Virus record (IMG/VR): IMGVR_UViG_2541047846_000008
Location: 1-40,632 of that record
DNA length: 40,632 nt
Source of the DNA: a virus
Lineage: Duplodnaviria > Heunggongvirae > Uroviricota > Caudoviricetes
Reading direction: 5' to 3' (one strand)
Made by a program: the position numbers and the translations under genes. Below the pieces are notes generated by a model. That model was not told where the DNA came from, did no database searches, and saw nothing but the letters and a program-made list of their open reading frames with translations. Positions within the stretch are counted from its first letter, which is position 1, and every line of letters begins with the position of its first letter. Shown piece after piece: positions 999 through 14,320 of this stretch.

Positions 999-1574
999 TC
1001 ATAATTCTGTGCTGGTGGCAGGAATTAATTTCTGCCAGATAGCGGAAACATATTTTGCCTGATGACGGGCATCAGCCAGGGCGTTGTGCCGTTCGCCATC
1101 GAAAGGCATGTCCATTTTGGGGTCGAATCCGATGGAACGCCCAAGCGTAACGATCGTGCGTACATCGTGGTCATTCCAGTATGCCCACGGGCAGATTTGT
1201 CCTGCTCGCTCATAAGCTCCACGTAAAATTACGTTGTCGAAGGTGGCTCCGTTACCCCAGACTTTTAAATATTTCGTATTGTCTGCGTGCCGGTTAATGA
1301 AATGATTTAGTTCTGAGAGAGCATCGCTGATCGACAAAGTATCATCAATACAGATTGCAGCTCGTGCTTCAGGGCTTTGTTTCAACCACCACAGGATGGT
1401 ATCGCCGTCAGGTGTAGCTCCTTGCCCCATAGCACTTTCCAGGCTAACAACCGTATAGAATTCTTGTCCGATGTCTCCGGTTTCTGGAGTGAAGAACACC
1501 GCGCCAATGGAAACGATCGGTGCATCCTTATTTTTCCCCATCGTCTCAAGGTCGATCATTAAGTTGTTCATCAC
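999..1574 (-). CDS. DnaQ-like 3'-5' exonuclease (DEDD family)
   Basis: N-terminal MIDLETMG motif (Exo I D-x-E) and conserved acidic and His residues downstream; ~190 aa. Confidence 0.6.
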   Translation of the reverse strand: MMNNLMIDLETMGKNKDAPIVSIGAVFFTPETGDIGQEFYTVVSLESAMGQGATPDGDTILWWLKQSPEARAAICIDDTLSISDALSELNHFINRHADNTKYLKVWGNGATFDNVILRGAYERAGQICPWAYWNDHDVRTIVTLGRSIGFDPKMDMPFDGERHNALADARHQAKYVSAIWQKLIPATSTEL

Positions 1575-2380
1575 TTCACCTCTTGTGATGGTTTTGCTGC
1601 AAAATACTCGATACCTTTATCCCAGATAGATTTTATGGTCGACCACGTGACTGGCACTTTAATTTCAATACGTCCGCTCCCGTCACAGGTATCGCAATCA
1701 TCATCGCCAAAGCATTCCAGGCAGCTTATAAACGTAGTTTCTGAAAATTCACCGGATAGCGCCCCCTTAGCGCCGTTCTCGGCTGTTAGTCTCTTCGGCA
1801 CCATAACCCAACCATCCGGAGTTACCGGAGAGTTGCCAGACAGTGCGTTCTGCAATCGTTCCAGCTTAACGTATTCCTGAACCCTGTTTCCGTCGCACGC
1901 CTGAAGCCATTGCACAGCCTTTTGCGCATCAGTGTGAAAGGCACAAGTGCGACCGTCATCAAATTGCATTTCGTAGAGGTCAGCAACCTGTTTAAACTGC
2001 GTTTGTGGCAACTTGTAAGCCTGGCTTGCAGGTACGGCACCATAGAGCATGGCAGCGCGGCAGGCGTTCCAGCCTTCATCAAAACCGACTATGCCATTAT
2101 TTAAAGACGGACGAGCATCTGGCACCACCGGCACTGGCTTGGCTATATATAGCGGCTGAACATACCAGCCCTTTGATAACCAACTGTCAGCAATGTTTTT
2201 ACTCCTGGTTATTGCCGGAATACCTAAGCCATTGTCTGAATGCAGCCATGCCACCGGATCCTCTTCCAGCGATGCCAGAGCAATTTCATAAGCACGGCGC
2301 TCAACATTGTCTCGCACGTCCATGCTGCTGATTCGTTCTTTGATTTCTTTAATCAGTTCTTTATCGGTAAATGTGGTCAT
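1571..2380 (-). CDS. Hypothetical phage early protein with C-terminal Cys-rich (CxxC..CxxC) segment
   Basis: 269-aa ORF with start overlapping the downstream gene; Cys cluster CLECFGDDDCDTCDG. Confidence 0.55.
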   Translation of the reverse strand: MTTFTDKELIKEIKERISSMDVRDNVERRAYEIALASLEEDPVAWLHSDNGLGIPAITRSKNIADSWLSKGWYVQPLYIAKPVPVVPDARPSLNNGIVGFDEGWNACRAAMLYGAVPASQAYKLPQTQFKQVADLYEMQFDDGRTCAFHTDAQKAVQWLQACDGNRVQEYVKLERLQNALSGNSPVTPDGWVMVPKRLTAENGAKGALSGEFSETTFISCLECFGDDDCDTCDGSGRIEIKVPVTWSTIKSIWDKGIEYFAAKPSQEVK

Positions 2381-2742
2381 TATGCTCCAGCCTCCAGTGC
2401 TTTTGGCATTACTGCCCAGTGAGTGATGTTGACGTTTTCAAGGTCCCCGACCTGAAATGTCCACTGCCATTCTCCGGTTTCTTTTTGCCCCCATGTATAC
2501 CAGAGAGAACGCCAGCCAATCAGCCAGCCTTCTCCATTAGCATCAAATAACAGAACACTTTCATTCGCTGGCGGCAGTTCAGCTGACACTGGTATTACTT
2601 TGTTTTCCAGTGCTGCACATTTAGCTTCAAGCGCATCAAATTTACGCACCAGGTATTCAGCATCCGTTTCATTCACTTTCAGATCTCGCGGTACACATTT
2701 CCCGCGAAGAAATCCTTCCATTTCGAAAACATTCATGCGCAT
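2380..2742 (-). CDS. Hypothetical protein, YfdS-like (120 aa)
   Basis: 120-aa ORF in a block whose sizes and order match the CPS-53 yfdP-yfdS block; assignment by analogy, not sequence recall. Confidence 0.5.
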   Translation of the reverse strand: MRMNVFEMEGFLRGKCVPRDLKVNETDAEYLVRKFDALEAKCAALENKVIPVSAELPPANESVLLFDANGEGWLIGWRSLWYTWGQKETGEWQWTFQVGDLENVNITHWAVMPKALEAGA

Positions 2743-3269
2743 TTGCGTAACTCCGATAATTCGTTAAAGCGTTCCATAAACATCCCGTAGGCATGGCCTG
2801 GAGCCAGTGGAATCACGTTGAACATCTCTGTTGCCGGGATACCTTCCAGTACAGGCCAGAAAGAGCCATCATCAAGCCCGAGATCGCGGCGTTCGGTTGC
2901 CAGCATGATGAGATCGGCATATTTCACGGGCGTACTCATAACCGGTGGTAACCCGTATTTCTCACGGATTACGGCGTCTATTTTTTCTTCCATCCGTTTA
3001 TAGTCAGGAAGAAGGCGTTTCAGTGGTGCGGGAATGTCCTGGCAATACGCTTCTGTTGCATCATGCATTAACGCTTCAAAAGCAAATTCCTGCGGCACCA
3101 GCTGGCTGCAAAGAACCGCATGTTGGGCGACGCTGTAGAAGTGCGAAAGATGACCGGCAAAGCGACAGATATTTGAAAGGGAAACCGCGATATCGTTAAT
3201 ATCGATGTCGTCTTTATTTATCCTGTCATAATAAAAATGCTTCCCGGAAAAAGTTTTAATAAATGACAT
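2733..3269 (-). CDS. yfdR: HD-domain metal-dependent phosphohydrolase (YfdR-like)
   Basis: HD-domain His/Asp pattern (AGH..H, MHDATE); 178 aa from the internal Met (track ORF 2733..3296). Confidence 0.65.
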   Translation of the reverse strand: MSFIKTFSGKHFYYDRINKDDIDINDIAVSLSNICRFAGHLSHFYSVAQHAVLCSQLVPQEFAFEALMHDATEAYCQDIPAPLKRLLPDYKRMEEKIDAVIREKYGLPPVMSTPVKYADLIMLATERRDLGLDDGSFWPVLEGIPATEMFNVIPLAPGHAYGMFMERFNELSELRKCA

Positions 3270-3396
3270 TTTGTTCTCCACGTATATGCGCTGCACCGCG
3301 CTGAATTCTGCTAAAAAGAATCCCTCACCATCCGGTGATTATTGAGTTAATTACGTTTCCATAAATGCCCCCGCAGGGGCATTTGCAGTAATGAAA

Positions 3397-4221
3397 TCAG
3401 GCGGTGAAAGTACCAATAAAGGTTTCTACTTTGCTGTCTTTGAATTTCTCAACAAGCAGATCACGAAATTCGTTAGCCATTTCTTCCTGCACCGCTTCCA
3501 GCTGAATAATGCGCAGAACCAGTACAGGACGATCGCCAGTGATAATGCTGAGGCGTAATTTAAACGGACGTTCTTTCAGACCTTCAAACGGAACGCATTT
3601 AAATTCAAATGCCACTGGCATAATGTCTTTGGTCTTCGCTTCGACAGACTCCATCAGGGAGCGTTTGCCGCTGAAGTCATTGTCTTCAAAATCAGCGGTC
3701 TGGTTCGCTTCAATTGTGATTTTACGGATCGCCGCAGCCGCTTTGGTTGCCTGAATGGCGTCACCATTAGCATCAAAGCCCACAAGGTAGTCGGCCCAGT
3801 CTTCAATCCATTCTGCCAGTGACTTCTGGGAGTTACGCTCGCCATTAACAGACAACAGAGCATAGAACGGTGCTGTCTTTTTCAGTTTGAGAGTGGCGGT
3901 GTTATCTGCGTGACCTGGTTCATCAATAGTACCCAGGTTAAGCACACTGACGGCTCGCATATTATCGGCATCGATAAAGCAGCGGGTGCCTTCATCTGCA
4001 AGATCTTTAGAATAACGGGTAAAGTCATCGATGCTGGCAGTGGAAAGTGCACCACGGAAACGGAAACGATTTAAATTAAATTTTTCCAGATCATGAATGC
4101 GGAAATTCTCAGGCAATGCCACAGCATCGGCACCAATCTTACTGATAATTTCATTAACACCCTGAGCAGAAATAAGGGCATGGATTTGATTAATTGCGGT
4201 TGAGTCTAAGTTCTGAGACAT
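3397..4221 (-). CDS. yfdQ: YfdQ-like (DUF2303-type) phage protein
   Basis: 274-aa ORF; size and position match CPS-53 YfdQ; symbol by analogy. Confidence 0.55.
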
Positions 4222-4286
4222 AATAAGTCCTCACTATATTAAGATATTCAGTGATGAGATAAATAATCAGTTAATTAAGAACGATA

Positions 4287-4649
4287 TTAATGACCTGCTG
4301 CGCGGAGTTTTCCGTCAGGTTCACCGGCAAGAGTCAGTAATTGTCCCTGGTCTTCCTGCAGAATAGTCAGGCGACCACCGCGATTGACATACATCGGCGT
4401 TTCGGTGGTGTCTTCTTCGGAAATTTTCCCGCGGTTAGTCGGGCGAACATATGAGAGTTTGTGTTTGATTTTCACACGGTTCTCATCAAATGGTTCGATT
4501 TCCAGGTTGAGTGAGACCTTACCTTTGGTTTTCGTGTTCATCACACCTGAAGCGACTTCACTGAGAACTGCGCCGATTTTGGTTTCAAATACGCCGCCGT
4601 CCAGCTCCCCGATAAATGCCTGCACATCAGTACTGCGTTCGCTAGCCAT
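4287..4649 (-). CDS. YfdP-like hypothetical protein (120 aa; start at internal Met MASERS)
   Basis: Track ORF runs to 4835 but the N-terminal 62 codons are Cys/His/Arg-rich and look non-coding; internal ATG gives a 120-aa product. Confidence 0.5.
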   Translation of the reverse strand: MASERSTDVQAFIGELDGGVFETKIGAVLSEVASGVMNTKTKGKVSLNLEIEPFDENRVKIKHKLSYVRPTNRGKISEEDTTETPMYVNRGGRLTILQEDQGQLLTLAGEPDGKLRAAGH

Positions 4650-5520
4650 TTTGCTGCTCCTCATCATATCGACCCTGCAAGGTCGGTTGGTTTCTCCACA
4701 AAACAGAGAAGAACACCTGCGGTGGCAGCCGCCCGGATGGATTGGGTTATGAGCCCGTCGTCCGGTGATGTTCTTCTCTGTTTTGTAAAAAGAGCGGTAC
4801 CAGCCGGAAGCAAGTGTACAAACTGGTACCGCCAAAGCAGTGGCTGTTGTGGTGACCGGTGCTGATCTCCGGCTTGCGGTTATTTCAGACTCTCACGGGC
4901 GTTTAATTGCCCCGCCGAACAGCTCTTTTCCGCAATAGCTGCAATGTCTTTCGCGCATCAGCCTGCGCATTCACCACAACGCTGAGAGCACTTAGCCAGT
5001 TACGGCACCACACTTTGTCGCGGTTCCATAAATGCCCTCATCGTTGCACCCTGGTCTCTTCCCAGGCGTCAAACCGAATCGCCACGCTGGTTAGGCGTCT
5101 TATCAGCATCATCATTGACTTGCACATTCCGGCTACCTGGTTTGTTTGCCCGAGCAAGGAGTGGATTGTCCCCTTTAACGTCACCAGACCGCTAACGACG
5201 CATGTGCCATACGCCGTGTTACAACCAACCTTTCGTTAACAACAGTCTGTTGTTTGTTCAGATAATGATGCTACTAAAAGTAGCAAAAATCAACAACAAA
5301 AAGTAGAAGTGTGTATTTAATTTTTAGTTTTCTATATAACGTTATGAATTAAAAGGTTTTTCACAGATGGGGTGATGTGGCGTAGTTACGTATAGAAAAT
5401 ATCGAGTGTCTTTTGTTTTGGTTTAATTATTAGGTTAATTAGATAGTAATAATTTGGGGGAAAATAGTGGGAACTATGGATACAACGGGTCAGGAACAGT
5501 GTTATTAAGCAGGCTACGAG

Positions 5521-5545
5521 TATAAAACCCGACCGGTTGGTCGGG
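5521..5545 (-). terminator. Rho-independent terminator downstream of the ParA-like gene
   Basis: CCCGACC-GGTT-GGTCGGG hairpin followed on the minus strand by TTTTATA. Confidence 0.6.
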
Positions 5546-5581
5546 CGAGAATTATGTTCGTTCTAAATCATGGTTATTGTA

Positions 5582-6667
5582 TTACAGACACTTGACTACT
5601 GTTGAAACATCAGATTCTAGTGCTTCAATTTGTGCTCTATTAGCTTGGGTCGCCATACCATAGATAGTGTAACTCTTATGCTGCAGCCTACTTAAAGGGC
5701 ATCCCTCATGGTTTATTATTGCTGCAAGAGTATTACCATCTTTGACATTTTGAACTCTCTCGAAAGTAGCCACATTTGTGAACAGATGAGGATGTGTATT
5801 TAACAGGTCATCCGTGATTCTTTTGATCTCTTCTGCATGTGATTTGAATGCTTTTGCTGCATCACTTTCATTAGTTCTTGAGCGGTTTTGTACGAAAAGG
5901 TGTAGTTCAGGTAGTTCGATAAGGTTTTGCTTTGCTTCTTTGTTGAAATCTAAGAACATTTCATCTTGTTCTGACTTGTCAATAGACACTCCATAAATAA
6001 GTTTAACAAGGTTTTTTATTCCGCGAATTGATGCAGCATCGGCAGTGCAAGGGATAATTATTCTATTTGCCGCGACTACTCCCAATTCTGTGTAGCTGGC
6101 AAAACTTGGGTTACAATCAATAAAAAATGTTTTTGCTCTGTCAGAAATGTTTTTATCGGCTTCAAAAGATGCTATTAGATCTACCAGCAAAGATCGGCTT
6201 TTCTTCCATGCTTCTTTTACTGGGGATGAGCCAATGTGAGATATTAAGCGTGAACAGATATCAAGATCGACATCACCAGGAAGAATATATAAGTTCTCTG
6301 GCATTTTTGCATTAACATCATGGGCTCGTACAAAGTAAGAAGATTCATTTCCTAAACGAGACAAAGGAGATTTGCTAAAACGCTCCTTGATATAACCTGC
6401 GATTGTAACATTTCTGTCTCGCAATTTATTTAGATTTTCTTCCCCGGTACCATTGCCACCAAGAATAATTTCTGAAACGTTTGATTGAGGGCATGAGTCA
6501 ATAACCACAACATCTTGATCCGGATGAGATATAGCAAACTCAACGGCAAGATTATATGTAAGAAAAGTTTTTCCTACACCACCTTTGTTGTTCCATACTA
6601 AATATTTTGTATTGGTGGAAATCATATCTGCTACCCCATCTGTCGCTTCAGTACGTTCATTAATCAT
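5582..6667 (-). CDS. ParA/MinD-family P-loop ATPase with ~110-aa C-terminal extension; AT-rich moron next to repressor
   Basis: Deviant Walker A NNKGGVGKT near N-terminus, FIDCNPS and IIIPCTAD motifs; 361 aa; AT-rich; own terminator. Confidence 0.75.
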   Translation of the reverse strand: MINERTEATDGVADMISTNTKYLVWNNKGGVGKTFLTYNLAVEFAISHPDQDVVVIDSCPQSNVSEIILGGNGTGEENLNKLRDRNVTIAGYIKERFSKSPLSRLGNESSYFVRAHDVNAKMPENLYILPGDVDLDICSRLISHIGSSPVKEAWKKSRSLLVDLIASFEADKNISDRAKTFFIDCNPSFASYTELGVVAANRIIIPCTADAASIRGIKNLVKLIYGVSIDKSEQDEMFLDFNKEAKQNLIELPELHLFVQNRSRTNESDAAKAFKSHAEEIKRITDDLLNTHPHLFTNVATFERVQNVKDGNTLAAIINHEGCPLSRLQHKSYTIYGMATQANRAQIEALESDVSTVVKCL

Positions 6668-6901
6668 TATCGTATCCTGTTGTATAGAATTGTCTATTAT
6701 TTATGTTTTATTTTGGTTTTTTTTGTGTTAGTAACGCACCCAAAGATAACATATGGTCTTTATCTTTTCTTACTTAGGGTAACAGCTCAGTGTTAATCCA
6801 TTTTTATGGACCAATGTGCCAAATAAAATTTGTATAAAGATTTTCTATCCTTATCTTTTATCATCTGTGCTCGTTTGCTTTAACGATTGCTAGATGCCTA
6901 A

Positions 6902-7642
6902 TTAAAGTCGATTATATTTAATCGACTCATGAATCAGTGCCTTACCCATAACATAAAGCTGATCTTGCGACTTCTCATCAATGTACCATTTCTCATAGGC
7001 GGGGTTATCCGAAAGAACAGCTAGTTTGTTGCCTTGCATTTGTAGACGTTTAACATGGAAAGTCTTACCGTAAACGAAAGAGTAAACTCCATCAGTCTGG
7101 AAGTGGCGAACGGAAATGTCGACAAACAATCGATCCCCGGAAACAAGAGTTGGGGACATACTATCTCCATTTACCGTCATAACTTTTATATCATTCTGAG
7201 AACGGTTTCCGAAAAGAGAACGGGCATGTTCAGTTGTGAACTCAATGGCGTAGAGCACATCAACATAGTCTGAAAGCATATAGGTCCCAGGTCCTGCGCT
7301 AACGCTAAGATCCAAAACTTCTATCCTGTATACATCGGGCTTTGTTGGATTGGGGATGCTTGCCATTTCCTTACATTCCTCTCTATCTCCAACACCATAT
7401 TCTAGATATGAAGCTGATACTCCAAGAGCCAACGCAAGTTTACTCATGACAGAGACACGTGGCTTCGCTGCGCCGATTGTGTATCGACGAGCCATTTCAT
7501 ATGTAACGCCCACAAGACTTTTGAGTTGAGTGACAGAGATTCCTTTGATTGTCATCAATTCGTTTAGTCTCTTGGCGAAATCTGGATACTTCTGTTCTTC
7601 TACCATAGGTAGAAGATTACTCACATCACACGCGCTAGTCAT
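6902..7642 (-). CDS. CI-like prophage repressor (N-terminal HTH, C-terminal S24 LexA-like autopeptidase)
   Basis: HTH segment followed by VNGDSMSPTL (S24 catalytic Ser) and downstream Lys; divergent from cro; internal ATG start consistent with a leaderless transcript. Confidence 0.85.
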   Translation of the reverse strand: MTSACDVSNLLPMVEEQKYPDFAKRLNELMTIKGISVTQLKSLVGVTYEMARRYTIGAAKPRVSVMSKLALALGVSASYLEYGVGDREECKEMASIPNPTKPDVYRIEVLDLSVSAGPGTYMLSDYVDVLYAIEFTTEHARSLFGNRSQNDIKVMTVNGDSMSPTLVSGDRLFVDISVRHFQTDGVYSFVYGKTFHVKRLQMQGNKLAVLSDNPAYEKWYIDEKSQDQLYVMGKALIHESIKYNRL

Positions 7643-7644
7643 TT

Positions 7645-7680
7645 CTATTTTAAGTAGTTGCAATTTGCTATTTTAAGTAG
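7645..7680. promoter_or_regulatory. Operator region of the cI/cro switch: two copies of CTATTTTAAGTAG
   Basis: 13-bp partly palindromic direct repeats at about 7645..7657 and 7668..7680 between divergent cI and cro. Confidence 0.5.
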
Positions 7681-7712
7681 CATCATCCCTCTGAATTTCA
7701 GAGGAGAAAGGT

Positions 7713-7976
7713 ATGTCATCTCAAAACTACACAGAGAAAGCAGTAAAGGCTGCGGGAAAGTCTTTATCTGAAGTAGCCCGTCGCTTTGGTTTTAAGTCCA
7801 CTCAATCCGTCGCCAATTGGGTAATTAACAATCAAGTCCCGTCAGAACGGGTTTTACAACTTTGTGAGTTGGGAAACTGGTCCGTGACCCCTCATGAACT
7901 GCGTCCTGATATTTACCCCAATCCAAATGATGGATTACCTGAGTGCTATTCAAAAGTTAGCGGTTCAACTGCGTAA
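7713..7976 (+). CDS. Cro-like HTH regulator (YdaS-family-like)
   Basis: 87-aa ORF with GAGGAG RBS, divergent from cI; HTH-like core. Confidence 0.6.
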   Translation: MSSQNYTEKAVKAAGKSLSEVARRFGFKSTQSVANWVINNQVPSERVLQLCELGNWSVTPHELRPDIYPNPNDGLPECYSKVSGSTA

Positions 7977-8004
7977 ACGTAACCACAGAAACGAGGAATG
8001 AACC

Positions 8005-8589
8005 GTGGGTAAAGAACCTGAATGGAAAGTTGATAAGCAACCAGCATGGCTGGTGGCAGCAATACGAAGAACGATTGCTGATTTACCTCATGGCTATGAG
8101 GAAGCAGCGGAAATTCTTGGTTTGTATAAATCTGATGATATCACCCCAGCGAAAGATCAATTGCATAACAGACTGCGTAGCGGTGGGGATCAAATTTTTC
8201 CACTTGAGTGGGCCATGGTTTTACAGGATGCCAGTGGTACCAGGCATGTAACGGATGCGATAGCGCGTCGTAGTAATGGGGTGTTTGTGCCGCTGGTGGA
8301 CATTGATGACATTGACAATGGTGACATTAATCAGCGGCTGATGGAGTCAATAGAATGGATTGGCAAGCATTCCCAGTACTTACGCAAGGCAACTGCTGAT
8401 GGAGTTATTGACCAGGCTGAGCGTGAGCAAATCGAAGAGAACAGCTACCAAGTAATGGCGAAGTGGCAGGAGCATTTAACACTGTTATTTCGTGTTTTTT
8501 GTGCGCCGGAAAAGAGTAACGCCCGCGAGTGTGCAGCTCCGGGCGTCGTGGCGTCGATTGCTTCTGGTTGTGGAGAAACTAACGCATGA
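8005..8589 (+). CDS. YdaT-like / CII-type early regulator (GTG start)
   Basis: 194-aa ORF directly after the cro-like gene, the lambdoid cII position. Confidence 0.45.
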
Positions 8590-8924
8590 ACAGTTTAACC
8601 ACACACTACCGTCGCTCGCAACTGATTGCGCTTCCTGTACCGGGTGGAAAAGCGAAGGTGGAGTATTGCTATGCGGTGAATGTACCAGGTGACAGGGAAA
8701 TTGTAACCCACAGCTTTGCAGAGTGGGCTGTGGGTGATTTCAACCGGCAGAAGGAGACAGTCCTTTGCAACAAGTTAACCGCTGGTTCAAAGATCACTAC
8801 GGAGTGCCCGTCAGAGTCATTCGTTGGGAACCGGAAACACAACGGGTTATCTACCTCCGCGAAGGCTATGAGCATGAGTGCTTCAGCCCGCTCGAACAGT
8901 TTCGTCGTAAATTCAGGGAAATAG
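8586..8924 (+). CDS. Hypothetical protein, probably frameshifted (C-terminal half continues in another frame to about 8944)
   Basis: ATGA overlap with upstream gene; frame-0 C-terminus is low-complexity while the alternate frame from about 8738 reads protein-like to a stop overlapping the next start. Confidence 0.3.
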
Positions 8925-8933
8925 AGGTCGGTC

Positions 8934-9875
8934 ATGAGCACTAAATTAACCGGCTATGTATGGGATGGTTGCGCTGCGTCAGGCATGAAGTTATCCAGCG
9001 TGGCAATTATGGCCCGCCTGGCTGATTTCAGTAATGACGAAGGTGTGTGCTGGCCATCAATTGAAACCATTGCCCGCCAGATTGGCGCGGGGATGAGCAC
9101 CGTCAGAACGGCTATCGCACGGCTGGAAGCAGAAGGCTGGTTAACGCGTAAGGCGCGTCGCCAGGGTAACCGCAATGCGTCGAATGTTTATCAGCTTAAC
9201 GTTGCGAAGCTTCAGGCAGCGGCATTTTCTCAACTGTCAGATTCTGACCCGTCAAAATCTGACGCATCAAAATCTGACCAGTCAAAATTTGATGCGTCGA
9301 AATCTGGCAAAAAAGCGGGTTTTCACCCGTCAGAATCTGGCGGGGATCCGTCAGTAAAATCAAAACATGATCCGTCAGATAAAAAAACTTCTCGTCCGGA
9401 CGCTTCGCAACCGGACACGCAGACGGCTGAACAGGAGTTTTTAACTCGCCATCCTGATGCGGTTGTATTCAGCCCTAAAAAGCGCCAGTGGGGAACGCAG
9501 GATGATTTGACCTGCGCACAGTGGCTCTGGAAAAAAATCATCGCCCTGTACGAGCAGGCCGCCGAATGTGACGGCGAGGTGGTTCGTCCCAAAGAACCGA
9601 ACTGGACAGCCTGGGCAAACGAAATTCGCCTTATGTGTGTGCAGGATGGTCGTACTCACAAACAAATCTGCGAGATGTACAGCCGCGTCAGCCGCGATCC
9701 GTTCTGGTGCCGTAACGTGCTCAGCCCGTCGAAGCTGCGGGAAAAATGGGATGAGCTTTCCCTGCGCTTATCGCCGTCCGTCAGCACGTACACCGAAAAA
9801 CGCGAAGACCCGTACTTCAAATCCAGTTACGACAACGTGGACTACAGCCAGATCCCGGCAGGATTCAGGGGGTGA
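8934..9875 (+). CDS. Replication initiation protein (N-terminal HTH, central repeat linker, DnaT-like C-terminal region)
   Basis: N-terminal HTH typical of phage replication initiators; SKSD-type pentapeptide repeats encoded by DNA iterons. Confidence 0.65.
   Translation: MSTKLTGYVWDGCAASGMKLSSVAIMARLADFSNDEGVCWPSIETIARQIGAGMSTVRTAIARLEAEGWLTRKARRQGNRNASNVYQLNVAKLQAAAFSQLSDSDPSKSDASKSDQSKFDASKSGKKAGFHPSESGGDPSVKSKHDPSDKKTSRPDASQPDTQTAEQEFLTRHPDAVVFSPKKRQWGTQDDLTCAQWLWKKIIALYEQAAECDGEVVRPKEPNWTAWANEIRLMCVQDGRTHKQICEMYSRVSRDPFWCRNVLSPSKLREKWDELSLRLSPSVSTYTEKREDPYFKSSYDNVDYSQIPAGFRG
9237..9311 (+). repeat. Iteron array (five 15-bp phased repeats, core TCAAAATCTGAC), candidate origin of replication
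   Basis: tcagattctgacccg / tcaaaatctgacgca / tcaaaatctgaccag / tcaaaatttgatgcg / tcgaaatctggcaaa, with degenerate copies to about 9389 and an A-rich tract. Confidence 0.55.
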
Positions 9876-10366
9876 TCATGAGTCTTTTGAATGAAGTTCA
9901 GAAATTCATTGAAGCCCATCCGGGGTGTACTTCCGGAGACATTGCGGATGCTTTTGCAGGTTACTCACGGCAGCGCGTTCTGCAGTATGCAAGCAAGTTA
10001 CGTCAGAGTGGGCGTGTGGCTCACCGTTGTGAAGGAGATACACGCAGACATTTCCCGCGCCTGACTGAGAGAGCGAAGGAGCTGGAACCACAACCAGTTC
10101 GTGAAACCAGACCTGTGCGCAATTTCTATGTCGGCACTAACGATCCACGGGTGATTTTGTGCCTGACCCGCCAGGCTGAAGAACTGGAGTCCAGGGGCTT
10201 ATACCGTCGTGCTGCAACGGTGTGGATGGCGGCATTCCGTGAAAGCCACTCCCAGCCAGAACGAAACAATTTTCTGGCACGTCGTGAGCGGTGCTTACGG
10301 AAAAGCAGCAAGCGCGCTGCATCGGGTGAAGAGTGGTATCTGTCAGGGAATTTCGTGGGGGCTTAA
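9872..10366 (+). CDS. Putative regulatory protein with PerC-like C-terminal motif
   Basis: 164-aa ORF with ATGA overlap; motif AEELESRGLYRRAATVW resembles PerC/Pch activators (from memory). Confidence 0.35.
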   Translation: MIMSLLNEVQKFIEAHPGCTSGDIADAFAGYSRQRVLQYASKLRQSGRVAHRCEGDTRRHFPRLTERAKELEPQPVRETRPVRNFYVGTNDPRVILCLTRQAEELESRGLYRRAATVWMAAFRESHSQPERNNFLARRERCLRKSSKRAASGEEWYLSGNFVGA

Positions 10367-11019
10367 TGAGTAATAAATATTGCCAGGCGCTGGTGGAACT
10401 GCGGAACAAACCAGCCCATGAACTGAAGGAAGTGGGCGATCAGTGGCGCACGCCGGACAACATTTTCTGGGGAATTAACACCCTGTTTGGCCCGTTTGTT
10501 CTGGATCTGTTCACTGACGGTGATAACGCCAAATGTGCTGCGTATTACACGGCGGAAGACAACGCGCTGGCGCATGACTGGTCAGAACGTCTTGCGGAGC
10601 TTAAAGGGGCTGCCTTTGGTAATCCCCCATACAGCCGCGCCAGTCAGCATGAGGGGCAATACATCACCGGCATGCGTTACATCATGAAACATGCCAGTGC
10701 CATGCGTGATAAGGGGGGGCGCTATGTTTTCCTGATCAAAGCTGCCACCAGCGAAGTGTGGTGGCCGGAAGATGCGGACCATATTGCTTTTATTCGAGGG
10801 CGTATTGGTTTTGAACTGCCTGCCTGGTTTATCCCGAAAGACGAGAAGCAGGTACCGACAGGCGCTTTCTTCGCTGGTGCTATTGCTGTTTTCGACAAGA
10901 CCTGGAAGGGACCGGCAATCAGCTACATCGGGCGCGATGAACTTGAGGCATGTGGTGAGGCCTTTCTGGCGCAGGTTCGCCAGCAGGCAGAAAAACTGGT
11001 CAGGGAGATGGCGGCATGA
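10366..11019 (+). CDS. Phage DNA N6-adenine methyltransferase (Dam-like), orphan
   Basis: NPPY catalytic motif (GNPPYS); start overlaps upstream stop; no restriction partner in window. Confidence 0.8.
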   Translation: MSNKYCQALVELRNKPAHELKEVGDQWRTPDNIFWGINTLFGPFVLDLFTDGDNAKCAAYYTAEDNALAHDWSERLAELKGAAFGNPPYSRASQHEGQYITGMRYIMKHASAMRDKGGRYVFLIKAATSEVWWPEDADHIAFIRGRIGFELPAWFIPKDEKQVPTGAFFAGAIAVFDKTWKGPAISYIGRDELEACGEAFLAQVRQQAEKLVREMAA

Positions 11020-11342
11020 CGACGTTAACTCAATGCCAGCAGCAGGTGCTGGATATGCTGATTTCTTATCAGAAAGAACGTGGCTTCCCGCCAACCAATC
11101 AGGAGGTGGCAACCATGCTGGGATACCGTTCAGTGAATGCAGCGGTGGAGCATCTTCGCGCACTGGAGAAAAAAGGCGTCATCACGATAAAGCGTGGTGT
11201 GGCCCGGGGGATCACGCTTCATACCGCAGTGAAGGACGACGACAGCGAAGCGGTCGGGATTATCCGCTCACTGCTTGCCGGTGAGGAAAACGCAAGGCTG
11301 CGTGCAACTCACTGGTTACATGAGAGAGGCCTGAAAGTATGA
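11016..11342 (+). CDS. LexA N-terminal DNA-binding-domain-like protein lacking the peptidase domain
   Basis: Pattern LTxxQQxVLDxxxxxxxxxGxPPTxxExAxxLGxRSxNAAxEHLxALxxKGVIxI matches the LexA winged-helix domain; 108 aa, no S24 domain. Confidence 0.65.
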   Translation: MTTLTQCQQQVLDMLISYQKERGFPPTNQEVATMLGYRSVNAAVEHLRALEKKGVITIKRGVARGITLHTAVKDDDSEAVGIIRSLLAGEENARLRATHWLHERGLKV

Positions 11343-11728
11343 AGCTGATCCTGCCTTTCCCGCCCAGCGTGAACACGTACTGGCGACACCCCAACAAAGG
11401 GGCATTTGCTGGTAAGAGCCTGATAAGCGCGGCGGGGCGAAAATTTCAGAGCGCGGCGTGTGCAGCAATAGTTGAGCAGTTACGTCGTCTGCCAAAACCA
11501 ACGTCGGCACCTGCTTCAGTGGAGATCGTGTTGTTTCCTCCGGATAACCGGATCCGCGATCTGGACAACTATAACAAGGCGCTGTTTGACGCCCTGACCC
11601 ACGCGGGTGTGTGGGAAGACGACAGTCAGGTGAAAAGAATGCTGGTGGAGTGGGGACCGGTTATCCCGGAAGGGAAGGTCGAGATCACTATCAGTAAGTA
11701 CGAGAAAACGGCGGGTGCAGCCGCCTGA
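11339..11728 (+). CDS. rusA: Holliday junction resolvase RusA
   Basis: 129 aa; LPxPPSxNxYWRH, DLDNYxKAxxDALT and WxDDSQV motifs characteristic of RusA. Confidence 0.85.
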   Translation: MKLILPFPPSVNTYWRHPNKGAFAGKSLISAAGRKFQSAACAAIVEQLRRLPKPTSAPASVEIVLFPPDNRIRDLDNYNKALFDALTHAGVWEDDSQVKRMLVEWGPVIPEGKVEITISKYEKTAGAAA

Positions 11729-11747
11729 TTAAGAGGAGAAACGAAGT

Positions 11748-12557
11748 ATGAATAATCTGATGGTCATTGATGGTATTGAAGTTCGTCGTGATGCTTATGG
11801 GCGTTACAGCCTGAACGATCTGCATCGCGCAGCAGTAGCATCTGGTGCAAATGCCAGAACCAAGGAGCCGGGAAAGTTTCTTTCCAGCCAACAAACTGTT
11901 GAGCTTGTTCATGAATTGACCAACACCCAGAATTTGGGTGTTGACCCGGTGAGTGTGATTCATGGGGGAAATGAACGGGGAACGTATGTCTGCAAGGAAC
12001 TGGTGTATGCCTATGCAATGTGGATCAGCCCGTCATTCCATCTGAAGGTGATCCGTACTTTCGATATGGTAACCAGCGCACCGGAAAAATTATCCGGACA
12101 GGCTGCTGACAAGATGCAGGCTGGCGTGATCCTGCTGGACTTTATGCGCCGGGAATTAAACCTGTCTAACTCTTCAGTGCTTGGTGCCTGTCAGAAACTC
12201 CAGGAGGCTGTTGGCTTACCGAATCTGGCACCGCGCTATGCCATTGATGCTCCTGCTGACGCGCCTGATGGCTCAAGCCGCCCCACGCTGTCACTGAGTG
12301 CACTGCTGAAGCAGTATGGTATCCGCCTGACAGCTAATCAGGCATATCACCAGATGGTGAAACTGGGGATCGTCGAGCAGCGCGAACGATACAGCCGTAC
12401 CGCGATTAACAACATCAAAAAATTCTGGTCGCTGACAGCGAAAGGTTGCATGTTCGGCAAGAACATCACCAGTCCCGCAAATCCGCGCGAGACGCAGCCG
12501 CATTTCTTCGAATCCCGATTCCCTGAGCTGTTAAAGCTGCTCGATACCGTTCATTGA
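11748..12557 (+). CDS. KilA-N domain protein (antirepressor-like)
   Basis: N-terminal KilA-N-like segment; strong RBS GAGGAG. Confidence 0.55.
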   Translation: MNNLMVIDGIEVRRDAYGRYSLNDLHRAAVASGANARTKEPGKFLSSQQTVELVHELTNTQNLGVDPVSVIHGGNERGTYVCKELVYAYAMWISPSFHLKVIRTFDMVTSAPEKLSGQAADKMQAGVILLDFMRRELNLSNSSVLGACQKLQEAVGLPNLAPRYAIDAPADAPDGSSRPTLSLSALLKQYGIRLTANQAYHQMVKLGIVEQRERYSRTAINNIKKFWSLTAKGCMFGKNITSPANPRETQPHFFESRFPELLKLLDTVH

Positions 12558-12558
12558 G

Positions 12559-13554
12559 GTGACCGTGAGAGCACTACTGACCCCTGAAATTGCCCCGCGT
12601 ATGGGGATCGTATTGTTCAGGCCAGGTTCAGAGCTGATGCCCCTGTTTATGCAGGGGCGTGTTCTGCTGGAGCCTGAGCCGGAACGTTATTCATCTTTCG
12701 CCAGTGGTGCCGTTCCGGCGGCATCACAACCGCTGGCGGATGATCCTGCCGTTCGGGCCGTGTTCCGCAATGAGGCAGTGATCCGTCGTGCTGGTGGCGT
12801 GGAATGTCTTGAAAGCTGGTTACTTCGTGAAAAAGGCTGCCAGTGGCCTCATTCCGACTGGCACAGCGAGAACATGACCACAATGCGACACGCTCCGGGC
12901 GCAATCCGTCTGTGCTGGCACTGCGATAACCAGCTGCGCGATCAGTTCACGGAACGGCTGGAATCAATGGCAACGGATAACTGTGCCCGCTGGGTGTTGT
13001 CTGTTGTGCGTCGGGATCTCGGTTTTGATGACAGTCACGTTGTGACAATGCCGGAACTGTGCTGGTGGCTGGTTCGTAATGATCTGGCGGATGCCTTACC
13101 GGAAAGCGCAGCCCGTAAGGCACTGAGATTACCGAATCCTGTTGTGCCGTCTGTCACCCGGGAAAGTGACCTTGTGCCTTCGGTTCCTGCCACCAGCATC
13201 ATCCAGGATAAGGCGAAAAAGGTGCTGGCGCTGAAAGTGGATCCGGAGTCGCCGGAGTCTTTTATGTTACGCCCAAAACGTCGCCGCTGGGTTAATGAAA
13301 AGTACACGCGCTGGGTTAAGACACAGCCGTGCGCATGTTGTGGAAAGCCTGCTGATGATCCTCACCACCTGATAGGCCACGGTCAGGGGGGAATGGGTAC
13401 AAAAGCGCATGACCTCTTTGTGTTGCCTTTGTGCAGAAAGCATCACGACGAGCTGCATGCGGATACCGTGGCATTTGAAGAGAAGTATGGCTCCCAGCTG
13501 GAGCTGATATTTCGTTTTATCGATCGTGCGCTGGCAATAGGCGTACTGGCGTAA
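12559..13554 (+). CDS. DUF968-family protein with C-terminal HNH-like zinc motif (GTG start)
   Basis: C-terminal CACCG..HHLIGHG..CRKHHDELH motif; nin-region position. Confidence 0.55.
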   Translation: MTVRALLTPEIAPRMGIVLFRPGSELMPLFMQGRVLLEPEPERYSSFASGAVPAASQPLADDPAVRAVFRNEAVIRRAGGVECLESWLLREKGCQWPHSDWHSENMTTMRHAPGAIRLCWHCDNQLRDQFTERLESMATDNCARWVLSVVRRDLGFDDSHVVTMPELCWWLVRNDLADALPESAARKALRLPNPVVPSVTRESDLVPSVPATSIIQDKAKKVLALKVDPESPESFMLRPKRRRWVNEKYTRWVKTQPCACCGKPADDPHHLIGHGQGGMGTKAHDLFVLPLCRKHHDELHADTVAFEEKYGSQLELIFRFIDRALAIGVLA

Positions 13555-13567
13555 GTGGAGAACGAGC

Positions 13568-14320
13568 ATGAACCTTGAAGCCTTACCAAAATATTACTCC
13601 CCAAAATCTCCAAAATTGAGCGATGACGCACCGGCGACAGGCTCAGGTGGTTTAACGATTACGGATGTGATGGCTGCGCAGGGGATGGTGCAGTCGAAAG
13701 CACCGCTTGGGTTTGCCTTATTCCTGGCAAAAGTTGGTGTTCAGGATCCTCAGTTTGCGATTGAAGGTCTGCTCAATTACGCGATGGCACTGGATAACCC
13801 GACATTGAATAAATTGAGTGAAGAAACCCGGTTACAGCTCATCCCTTACCTTGTGAATTTTGCCTTTGCTGATTATTCCAGGTCTGCGGCAAGTAAGGCT
13901 CGCTGTGAGCATTGTGCTGGTACTGGATTTCATAATGTATTGCGCGAAGTGGTGAAACACTCCAGAAGCGGGGAATCAGTTATCAAGGAAGAGTGGGTGA
14001 AGGAACTATGTCAGCATTGTCATGGTAAGGGAGAAGTCAGCACAGCGTGCAGAGGGTGTAAGGGTAAAGGTATTGTCCTGGATGAAAAAAGGACCCGGCT
14101 TCATGGCACGCCTGTTTATAAGATTTGTGGGCGTTGCAATGGAAACCGGTTTAGCCGTTTACCAACCACACTGGCGCGGCATCATGTCCAGAAGCTGGTA
14201 CCAGACCTGACGGATCATCAGTGGTACAAAGGATATGCAGATGTCATTGATAAACTGGTGACAAAGTGCTGGCAGGAAGAAGCATATGCTGAGGCGCAAT
14301 TAAGAAAAGTGACAAGATAA
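13568..14320 (+). CDS. Late-gene antiterminator Q-like protein (zinc-binding)
   Basis: Four CxxC pairs; sits immediately upstream of the pR'-like promoter, tR'-like terminator and lysis cassette. Confidence 0.55.
   Translation: MNLEALPKYYSPKSPKLSDDAPATGSGGLTITDVMAAQGMVQSKAPLGFALFLAKVGVQDPQFAIEGLLNYAMALDNPTLNKLSEETRLQLIPYLVNFAFADYSRSAASKARCEHCAGTGFHNVLREVVKHSRSGESVIKEEWVKELCQHCHGKGEVSTACRGCKGKGIVLDEKRTRLHGTPVYKICGRCNGNRFSRLPTTLARHHVQKLVPDLTDHQWYKGYADVIDKLVTKCWQEEAYAEAQLRKVTR

Follow-up and report, generated by a model that had tools for sequence, protein, structure and literature searches.

The described systems closest to the locus analysed here are phages that carry a replication origin inside their own initiator gene. 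For P22 and phage L gene 18, the origin was inferred from imperfect repeats within the initiator gene, six 11-bp copies in the case of phage L (PMC8022706), and the same inference is accepted for lambda, P22 and phage L (PMC8022706; PMC7466680). The basic lambda-style layout is known and is what a phage biologist would expect; the origin of the initiator family treated here is not described in the literature found. Our search, outside which much subscription literature lay, returned no experimental or explicit bioinformatic origin description for HTH_36 (PHROG 391) initiators. Origins of the phages SfIV, SfII and SfV were also looked for: the SfIV genome paper makes no mention of one, and literature matches to the motif strings were unrelated primers. 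We analysed a 40,632-nt (40.6-kb) stretch of Caudoviricetes DNA (IMG/VR record IMGVR_UViG_2541047846_000008), called the window in its full length, and all coordinates below are window positions. Judged by sequence, the window is a lambdoid prophage of the SfIV/SfII type, because its initiator gene is 99.2% and 98.2% identical to the SfIV and SfII counterparts, respectively. Within this gene lie an array of 15-bp repeats, a conserved core and an A-rich tract, which together probably constitute a lambda-type replication origin, with initiator-binding iterons and an unwinding region. A preliminary description of the window had proposed a probable origin with initiator sites resembling ori-lambda, and the comparative evidence below (PHROG 391 membership, gene offset, a predicted disordered linker, DNA-level selection and co-variation) favors the same reading.

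Five 15-bp units, arranged head to tail and in phase, occupy 9237–9311, as found by sequence reading, Tandem Repeats Finder and a repeat search (Table 1). The perfect phasing claimed in the preliminary description stands, whereas the 12-mer quoted there as the core, TCAAAATCTGAC, is exact in only two units and has two mismatches in each of the other three. The core of the unit is an 11-bp palindrome, TCAGA-W-TCTGA, with six copies in total. The palindromic nature of the units had gone unremarked: each repeat has internal dyad symmetry, a feature of lambda-type origins, the repeat search reports the units as inverted repeats of one another, and positions 9236–9248 form a perfect 13-bp palindrome, GTCAGATTCTGAC. 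Beyond the five units there are a sixth site at 9330 (TCAGAATCTGGCGGG, after an 18-bp spacer) and a weaker match at 9360. Across the 40.6-kb window, TCARAWTCTGR has five matches, all within 9237–9340, against an expected 0.15, and none of 100 shuffles reaches five. Tandem Repeats Finder scores a 30-bp period higher (93) than a 15-bp period (79). The 30-bp super-period was rejected, as the CCG/GCR spacer alternation is not kept in relatives, and the unit is taken as 15 bp.

The repeats do lie inside the replication gene (open reading frame (ORF) 8934–9875), where they encode a repetitive Ser/Lys/Asp linker that includes SKSDA and SKSDQ; the full peptide of the five units reads SDSDP/SKSDA/SKSDQ/SKFDA/SKSGK. 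The array and the sixth site together span gene offset 304–411, inside the linker between two folded domains. Two other candidate elements were set aside. A terminator-like hairpin followed by a T-run on the minus strand (9316–9329, between unit 5 and site 6) was treated as chance, its stem not being conserved in relatives. An internal promoter in 8800–10000 was rejected: there is no sigma-70-like site, and a consensus TTGACC...TAAAAT pair stands 27 nt apart and is not conserved.

Relatives were collected as 79 loci with the same N-domain, from bacterial contigs representing one genome per species, plus eight phage loci; 61 sequences were left once those sharing 95% or more of N-domain nucleotides had been reduced. 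The strongest conservation, missed in the preliminary description, lies just downstream of the array, at 9321–9380. In an alignment of 59 genes anchored on the DPSV motif, this stretch, with the consensus TTTsACCCGTCAGAATCTGGnGGGGATCCGTCAGTAAAwTCAAmwmmwGAwCCrTCAG, scarcely varies across Escherichia, Yersinia, Pantoea, Rahnella, Providencia and Proteus. Thirteen of its 20 codons have a synonymous-codon identity of at least 0.91, and no codon of the N-domain exceeds 0.86. The 17-mer GGGGATCCGTCAGTAAA, carried by at least 120 viral contigs, was in frame inside an ORF longer than 60 amino acids in 120 of 120 contigs. The window-type N-domain is present in 115 of these ORFs and missing from five, in three of them because of a contig end. 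The A-rich tract of the preliminary description is real. It is the most AT-rich 40-mer in 8634–10175 (the gene with 300 bp on each side), includes an A-run at 9381–9387 and directly follows the repeats, as such tracts do in lambda-type origins; the corresponding tract of lambda ori, just 3′ of its iterons, has 74% A+T and 57% A on the coding strand.

Table 1. Features of the initiator gene and its putative origin (window positions; PWM, position weight matrix; pLDDT, predicted local distance difference test score).
Feature	Position	Strand	Sequence or support
Replication initiator gene, O-like, 313 aa	8934..9875	+	99.2% identity to Shigella phage SfIV gp41; PHROG 391 E 1e-134
N-terminal winged-helix DNA-binding domain, aa 1-99	8934..9230	+	Pfam HTH_36 (PF13730) E 4e-11, aa 23-70
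Five head-to-tail 15-bp iterons	9237..9311	.	Conserved palindromic core TCARAWTCTGA; PWM scores 13-23 bits
Iteron unit 1	9237		TCAGATTCTGACCCG
Iteron unit 2	9252		TCAAAATCTGACGCA
Iteron unit 3	9267		TCAAAATCTGACCAG
Iteron unit 4	9282		TCAAAATTTGATGCG
Iteron unit 5	9297		TCGAAATCTGGCAAA
18-bp spacer	9312..9329	.	AAAGCGGGTTTTCACCCG; puts sixth site out of 15-bp phase
Sixth iteron	9330..9344	.	TCAGAATCTGGCGGG; PWM 19.5 bits; nearly invariant in 59 relatives
60-nt nucleotide-conserved core	9321..9380	.	TTTCACCCGTCAGAATCTGGCGGGGATCCGTCAGTAAAATCAAAACATGATCCGTCAGAT; synonymous-codon identity 0.897 vs 0.425 in N-domain
First GATCCGTCAG element, contains GATC	9345..9354	.	GATC in 59/59 relatives; GAWCC(N1-2)TCA class
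Second GATCCGTCAG element	9369..9378	.	24-nt spacing from first; GATC in 51/59 relatives
A-rich tract, candidate DNA-unwinding region	9353..9392	+	72.5% A+T, 50% A on coding strand
Mosaic junction zone, N-domain-plus-origin module / C-domain module	9379..9413	.	Breakpoints and L094 identity jump
Helical C-terminal domain, aa 162-278	9417..9767	+	BLASTP E 2e-25 each to lambda O and phi80 gp15; pLDDT 73-94
C-terminal tail SQIPAGFRG	9846..9872	+	8/9 residues identical to E. coli DnaT 171-179 (last nine)

The initiator carries an HTH_36 domain together with a full-length PHROG 391 match (phrog_391, 'replication initiation O-like', residues 1–313, E 1e-134). PF04492 (Phage_rep_O) is matched by lambda O (E 6e-36) and phi80 gp15 (E 6e-25) and is not matched by the window initiator; that the DNA-binding domain differs from that of lambda O had escaped earlier notice. 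In an AlphaFold model built on 45 homologs, the N-domain consists of four helices and a β-hairpin wing, with a pLDDT of about 73–89, but about 66 at residues 71–80. Residues 103–160 fall below 50 and are predicted to form a disordered linker, which contains the repeats plus all sequence downstream to 9392. Since the linker is predicted to be disordered, protein-level constraint there is expected to be weak. Residues 170–277 are homologous to lambda O residues 175–270 by BLASTP. A PDB sequence search with the initiator returned generic MarR winged helices only (E about 3e-3), and an NCBIfam search gave no match above cutoff.

Whether the linker is conserved as DNA or as protein can be read from its codons. 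In the N-domain, identical amino acids share a codon in 30–56% of cases between the window and its relatives and in a fraction of 0.425 over all pairs, indicating that synonymous sites are saturated between relatives. The refined PWM of the unit reads T-C-A-R-A-A-T-C-T-G-A followed by four poorly conserved bases, and its third-codon positions are as informative as the first and second: position 3 is A in 94%, position 6 is A in 81% and never G or C, and position 9 is T in 78%. Among the 61 relatives, units are spaced by 15 nt 256 times, by 33 nt 37 times and by 48 nt 21 times, and 427 of 436 PWM matches are in frame 0. Because a PWM selects its own matches, the codon test was repeated with the linker set by protein anchors only. 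In 59 non-redundant relatives from many Enterobacterales genera, Ser is encoded by TCA or TCT in 82% of linker codons versus 37% elsewhere in the same genes (p 5e-92), and Lys by AAA in 97% versus 68% (p 6e-21). In Providencia and Proteus relatives the peptide SKSD has become SKSV by a D-to-V change and the DNA core TCAAAATCTG is kept. Stx2 phage KH16-043 (locus L006), whose N-domain is 62% identical, has a 20-bit copy, CTTCAGAATCTGACC, in another reading frame, where it encodes L-Q-N-L-T. These sequence comparisons indicate that the array and core are under nucleotide-level purifying selection, conserved as DNA rather than as protein.

The repeats also change together with the domain that would bind them. 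An E. coli locus (L094; CP083701) has a C-half 95–100% identical to that of the window, but in the N-domain nucleotide identity is only about 60%; the array of this locus keeps the 15-bp period with a different palindrome, TTGACCCGTCAA, and GATCCGTCAG is kept twice. Across these sequences the repeat varies with the DNA-binding domain, the pattern expected of initiator-specific binding sites. Identity of this locus to the window rises from about 60% to 95–100% at 9379–9413. By megablast, mEp460_4F5 matches gene positions 446–942 only and phiNP 2–479 only, with breakpoints just after the core, and the window-type N-domain and array occur with no fewer than three C-domains that are unrelated to one another (lambda-O-like, TIGR02220/conserved phage C-terminal, and a third type). 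By sequence, then, N-domain, repeats and core form a module that is inherited as a whole. Iteron number, whose comparison among related prophages had been suggested in the preliminary description, does vary: near-identical alleles carry 3, 5, 6, 7 or 10–11 units and differ in 5-codon steps. Alleles differing in unit number or by deletion are P0006, P0008, P0010, P0047, P0015, P0017 and P0019. Short direct repeats mark the deletion breakpoints; one of them is ATGCGTCGAA, present at 9175 and 9292.

Two observations concern the surroundings of the core. A phage Dam gene (10333–11019) lies two genes downstream of the initiator gene and directly after it in several relatives; SfIV has no methylase. 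With the conserved GATC sites in the core, methylation may be linked to origin use. Separately, a sequence common to lambda, phi80 and Providencia prophages, TCGTCnGAGAATTCTGrCGAATCC, stands where the lambda-type C-module begins, to the immediate right of the AT-rich tract (L088 1160–1195; L098 11778–11812; linker ends of L055, L065, L067, L072 and L073). The window has only a diverged version of it, at about 9389–9418.

By analogy with lambda, the winged-helix N-domain would bind the six palindromes to form a nucleoprotein array, the conserved A-rich core beside the sites (about 9345–9392) would melt, and the C-terminal domain and tail would recruit the host DnaB helicase, while transcription of the early rightward operon (cro, cII, then the initiator gene) would pass through the site. 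Several points weigh against an origin at this place. No binding, unwinding or replicon assay for the HTH_36-type initiator family was found in the literature searched. The 15-bp head-to-tail spacing departs from the 21–24 bp of lambda, phi80 and distant HTH_36 relatives, a winged-helix dimer would not usually have half-sites as close as about 6 bp, and the AT-rich tract is short (about 40 bp) with only 72% A+T. The codon p-values ignore shared ancestry, although the effect is large. Rare alleles (P0015, P0017 and P0019) lack most or all of the array through in-frame deletions; these may be dead prophages. Finally, nucleotide conservation is evidence of a DNA or RNA function, not of origin firing specifically.

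The last point leaves room for palindromes that are true sites of the initiator, or of another protein, and serve regulation (for instance autoregulation, copy control, handcuffing or a roadblock), with the strands opened and the helicase loaded elsewhere in the phage genome. Conservation at the nucleotide level does not tell which DNA function is conserved, plasmid iterons are reported to act in copy control as well (PMC4980987), and unwinding at the site is a prediction. Such a division of labor would nevertheless have to accommodate that the 40.6-kb window has no other motif cluster, that the array borders on the most pronounced AT-rich tract of the region, that the layout is that of lambda and phi80, where such sites are the origin, and that N-domain, repeats and core travel as a single module; we regard it as unlikely. 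An RNA function, in which a structured early-mRNA segment controls translation or stability of the initiator message, would also be compatible with conserved nucleotides, and the single strand does fold far better than shuffles (z −5.3 as RNA), pairing unit 1 with site 6 and units 2–3 with unit 4. Any array of palindromes would fold automatically, however, and the fold leaves 9345–9380, where conservation is highest, unpaired. A different number of units in a relative would give a different fold, distant relatives share the arrangement without the sequence, and no Rfam family applies, the single match being a miRNA (E 0.3; 22 bits versus a 97-bit threshold). We consider an RNA element very improbable.

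It could also be argued that the repeats matter only to the protein, as a flexible Ser/Lys/Asp-rich linker expanded by replication slippage, with the DNA similarity left by recent duplication. Near-identical alleles do change copy number in steps of 5 codons, L067 contains a recent 60-nt duplication, and the linker is predicted to be disordered. A purely protein-level repeat was rejected on the codon bias, the core kept under the D-to-V change and the out-of-frame copy in KH16-043: TCA, AAA and TCT codons are retained across genera in which other synonymous sites are saturated, the DNA core outlasts an amino acid change, and the same motif recurs out of frame. A palindromic unit is, moreover, meaningless for a peptide. 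This explanation is accordingly rated as quite improbable, and an origin inside the initiator gene remains the reading we prefer.

The arrangement extends beyond close relatives. Ten distant HTH_36 initiators were compared, namely those of ST64B, Stx phage 24B, SI5, RothC and Vibrio phage D75 and of genome loci in Psychrobacter, Thorsellia, Phlomobacter and others, and all ten have palindromic or direct repeats of their own at a gene offset of about 260–450. There are mostly 3–5 copies of 19–26 bp, at a spacing of mostly 21–24 bp; L085 has 10 overlapping copies and SI5 has two. Downstream of these iterons stand two or three copies resembling GAACCAGTCA, spaced by 12–17 bp, of which one is in the other frame (AGA ACC AGT CAC versus GAA CCA GTC) in ST64B, 24B, SI5, RothC, D75 and L087. 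Of 20 HTH_36 initiator genes, 18 have in their linker region the element GAWCC(N1-2)TCA, which includes GATCCGTCAG of the window and has a background rate of 6e-5 per nt (L089, 1610–1650; L090, 1595–1625; L092, 1608–1648; L093, 1568–1600; window, 9345–9378). Lambda and phi80 lack it in their O genes, and no description of it was found in searchable literature. By analogy, it is a candidate for strand opening or single-strand recognition; a plasmid Rep protein can contact unwinding-element repeats as single strands, according to one report (PMC4081077). Based on these sequences, we propose as a family trait, rather than as an established definition, lineage-specific palindromic repeats after the N-domain followed by GAWCC(N1-2)TCA elements.

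The preliminary description had not remarked on the absence of a P-like helicase-loader gene. No P, DnaC-like, DnaB-like/helicase or primase gene occurs among ORFs of at least 110 amino acids in 999–14320, and none of these is annotated in SfIV or beside the initiator gene in L002–L005 and L008. The C-domain of lambda O works through P. With no phage helicase or loader gene, helicase loading must use host factors directly. The C-terminal tail of the initiator resembles that of DnaT; in allele P0022 the tail shares 14 of the last 20 residues of DnaT (E 9e-8), and a tail of the form [IV]PxGFR[GS] is kept in relatives with unrelated C-domains. The DnaT-like tail may be a host-factor docking motif in loader-less phages, and it probably explains annotations as 'primosomal protein I'. 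A paper on the DnaT preprimosome contains nothing on the extreme C-terminal tail of DnaT. A broader proposal, which we put forward as possible though doubtful, is that HTH_36 initiators share an undescribed origin core, in which lineage-specific palindromic iterons are followed by a constant GAWCC(N1-2)TCA element, independent of reading frame, that would be the site of strand opening or single-strand recognition. In phages that have the initiator alone, the DnaT-like tail (...IPxGFRG) would plug this origin into host DnaC-DnaB or PriA/PriB/DnaT, no P-type loader being needed. Outside this argument, and not used as evidence, a 15,977-bp circular sequence deposited as a plasmid (L099; NZ_CP148542.1) consists of a lambdoid early-right region with cI, cro, an unannotated O-like gene, a DnaC-like ATPase, nin-like genes, Q and lysis genes. 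Its O-like gene is 52% identical to the window initiator. The sequence could be a lambda-dv-like replicon that exists in nature, or it could have arisen in assembly.

Upstream of the initiator gene lie a cI-like repressor gene (6902–7663, minus strand), a cro-like gene, a cII-like gene and two small ORFs; downstream are PerC-like, Dam, LexA-like, RusA, KilA-N, DUF968 and Q genes. The gene following the initiator (9872–10366) is PerC-like only in its C-terminal half (residues 98–149), its N-terminal 100 residues matching a PHROG of unknown function. E. coli RefSeq annotates the gene overlapping the initiator 3′ end as yfdN (PerC family), the name of a gene in the K-12 CPS-53 prophage. The two ORFs 8586–8924 and 8765–8944 overlap by 160 nt in different frames, and both have family support, the former from phrog_1170 (E 1e-69) and the latter from DUF4222 (E 6e-19) and phrog_1343 (E 9e-35). 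The SfIV annotation has the first ORF and that of RefSeq E. coli the second; the genes may truly overlap, or one family could be spurious. Beside the cI-like gene, an ORF for a 361-aa ParA/AAA_31-type ATPase (5582–6667, minus strand) has no equivalent in the SfIV annotation at the corresponding place.

The analysis places a likely origin and its specificity determinants for a common initiator type, which includes those of the Shigella serotype-converting phages SfII and SfIV. At 90% identity, a single cluster of the initiator protein holds 5,414 member sequences. Among 5,426 complete E. coli genomes, 2,672 contain a match to the last 73 bases of the gene, which other O-type genes have in common with it. 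For annotation, the results suggest a rule for HTH_36 origins: palindromic repeats right after the domain, then the GAWCC-N-TCA core and an A-rich tract. A lambda-O-like C-domain in the absence of a P protein raises the question of helicase loading, for which the DnaT-like tail is a testable handle. Experiments would be worthwhile on the invariant core, on the GAWCC-N-TCA element that HTH_36 initiators share, and on a design that combines a DnaT-like tail with the lack of a loader.

Among known systems, ST64B Sb42, the 'O' protein of Stx phage 24B and the initiators of SI5, RothC and Vibrio phage D75 have N-domains homologous to that of the window (39–46% identity), with palindromic repeats directly after the domain and then GAWCC(N1-2)TCA elements. 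Their repeats are unrelated in sequence and longer (19–22 bp, at 21–24-bp spacing), and several of these phages also encode a partner protein, which is a primase-helicase in 24B and SI5 and P-like in RothC. The theta plasmids RK2, pPS10, R6K and F likewise set initiator-binding repeat arrays beside an AT-rich unwinding element; those arrays lie outside rep, consist of direct repeats and bind a Rep protein that has two winged-helix domains, whereas the window sites are palindromic and intragenic and the initiator model has a single winged helix. P22 and phage L share with the window a predicted origin inside the initiator gene, recognized by sequence inference only; they differ in their repeat sequences and in having a DnaB-type helicase of their own (gene 12).

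The phi80 ori in gene 15, with four annotated gp15 sites, has the same architecture and relative position as the array described here, and the C-domains are homologous (E 2e-25). The annotation of a homolog had suggested phi80 gp15 as a close relative. This was rejected, as only the C-domain is common: gp15 has a Phage_rep_O N-domain, its sites are spaced by 20–21 bp, and phi80 has a P-like gene 14. Relative to lambda O, the window initiator has the family's C-domain but neither the N-terminal Phage_rep_O domain, HTH_36 standing in its place, nor a downstream P or other loader or helicase gene. Its six 15-bp head-to-tail units contrast with four lambda sites of 18–19 bp at 20–24-bp spacing, about two helical turns, and it has an additional invariant core with GATCCGTCAG elements. 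The likeness to ori-lambda lies in the design. In both, repeated palindromic sites stand in the middle of the initiator gene (offset 349–433 of O in lambda and 304–411 in the window), within the linker between domains; the sites are directly followed on the 3′ side by a tract that is A-rich on the coding strand, a homologous C-domain (E 2e-25) lies beyond, and the gene follows cro and cII in the early rightward operon.

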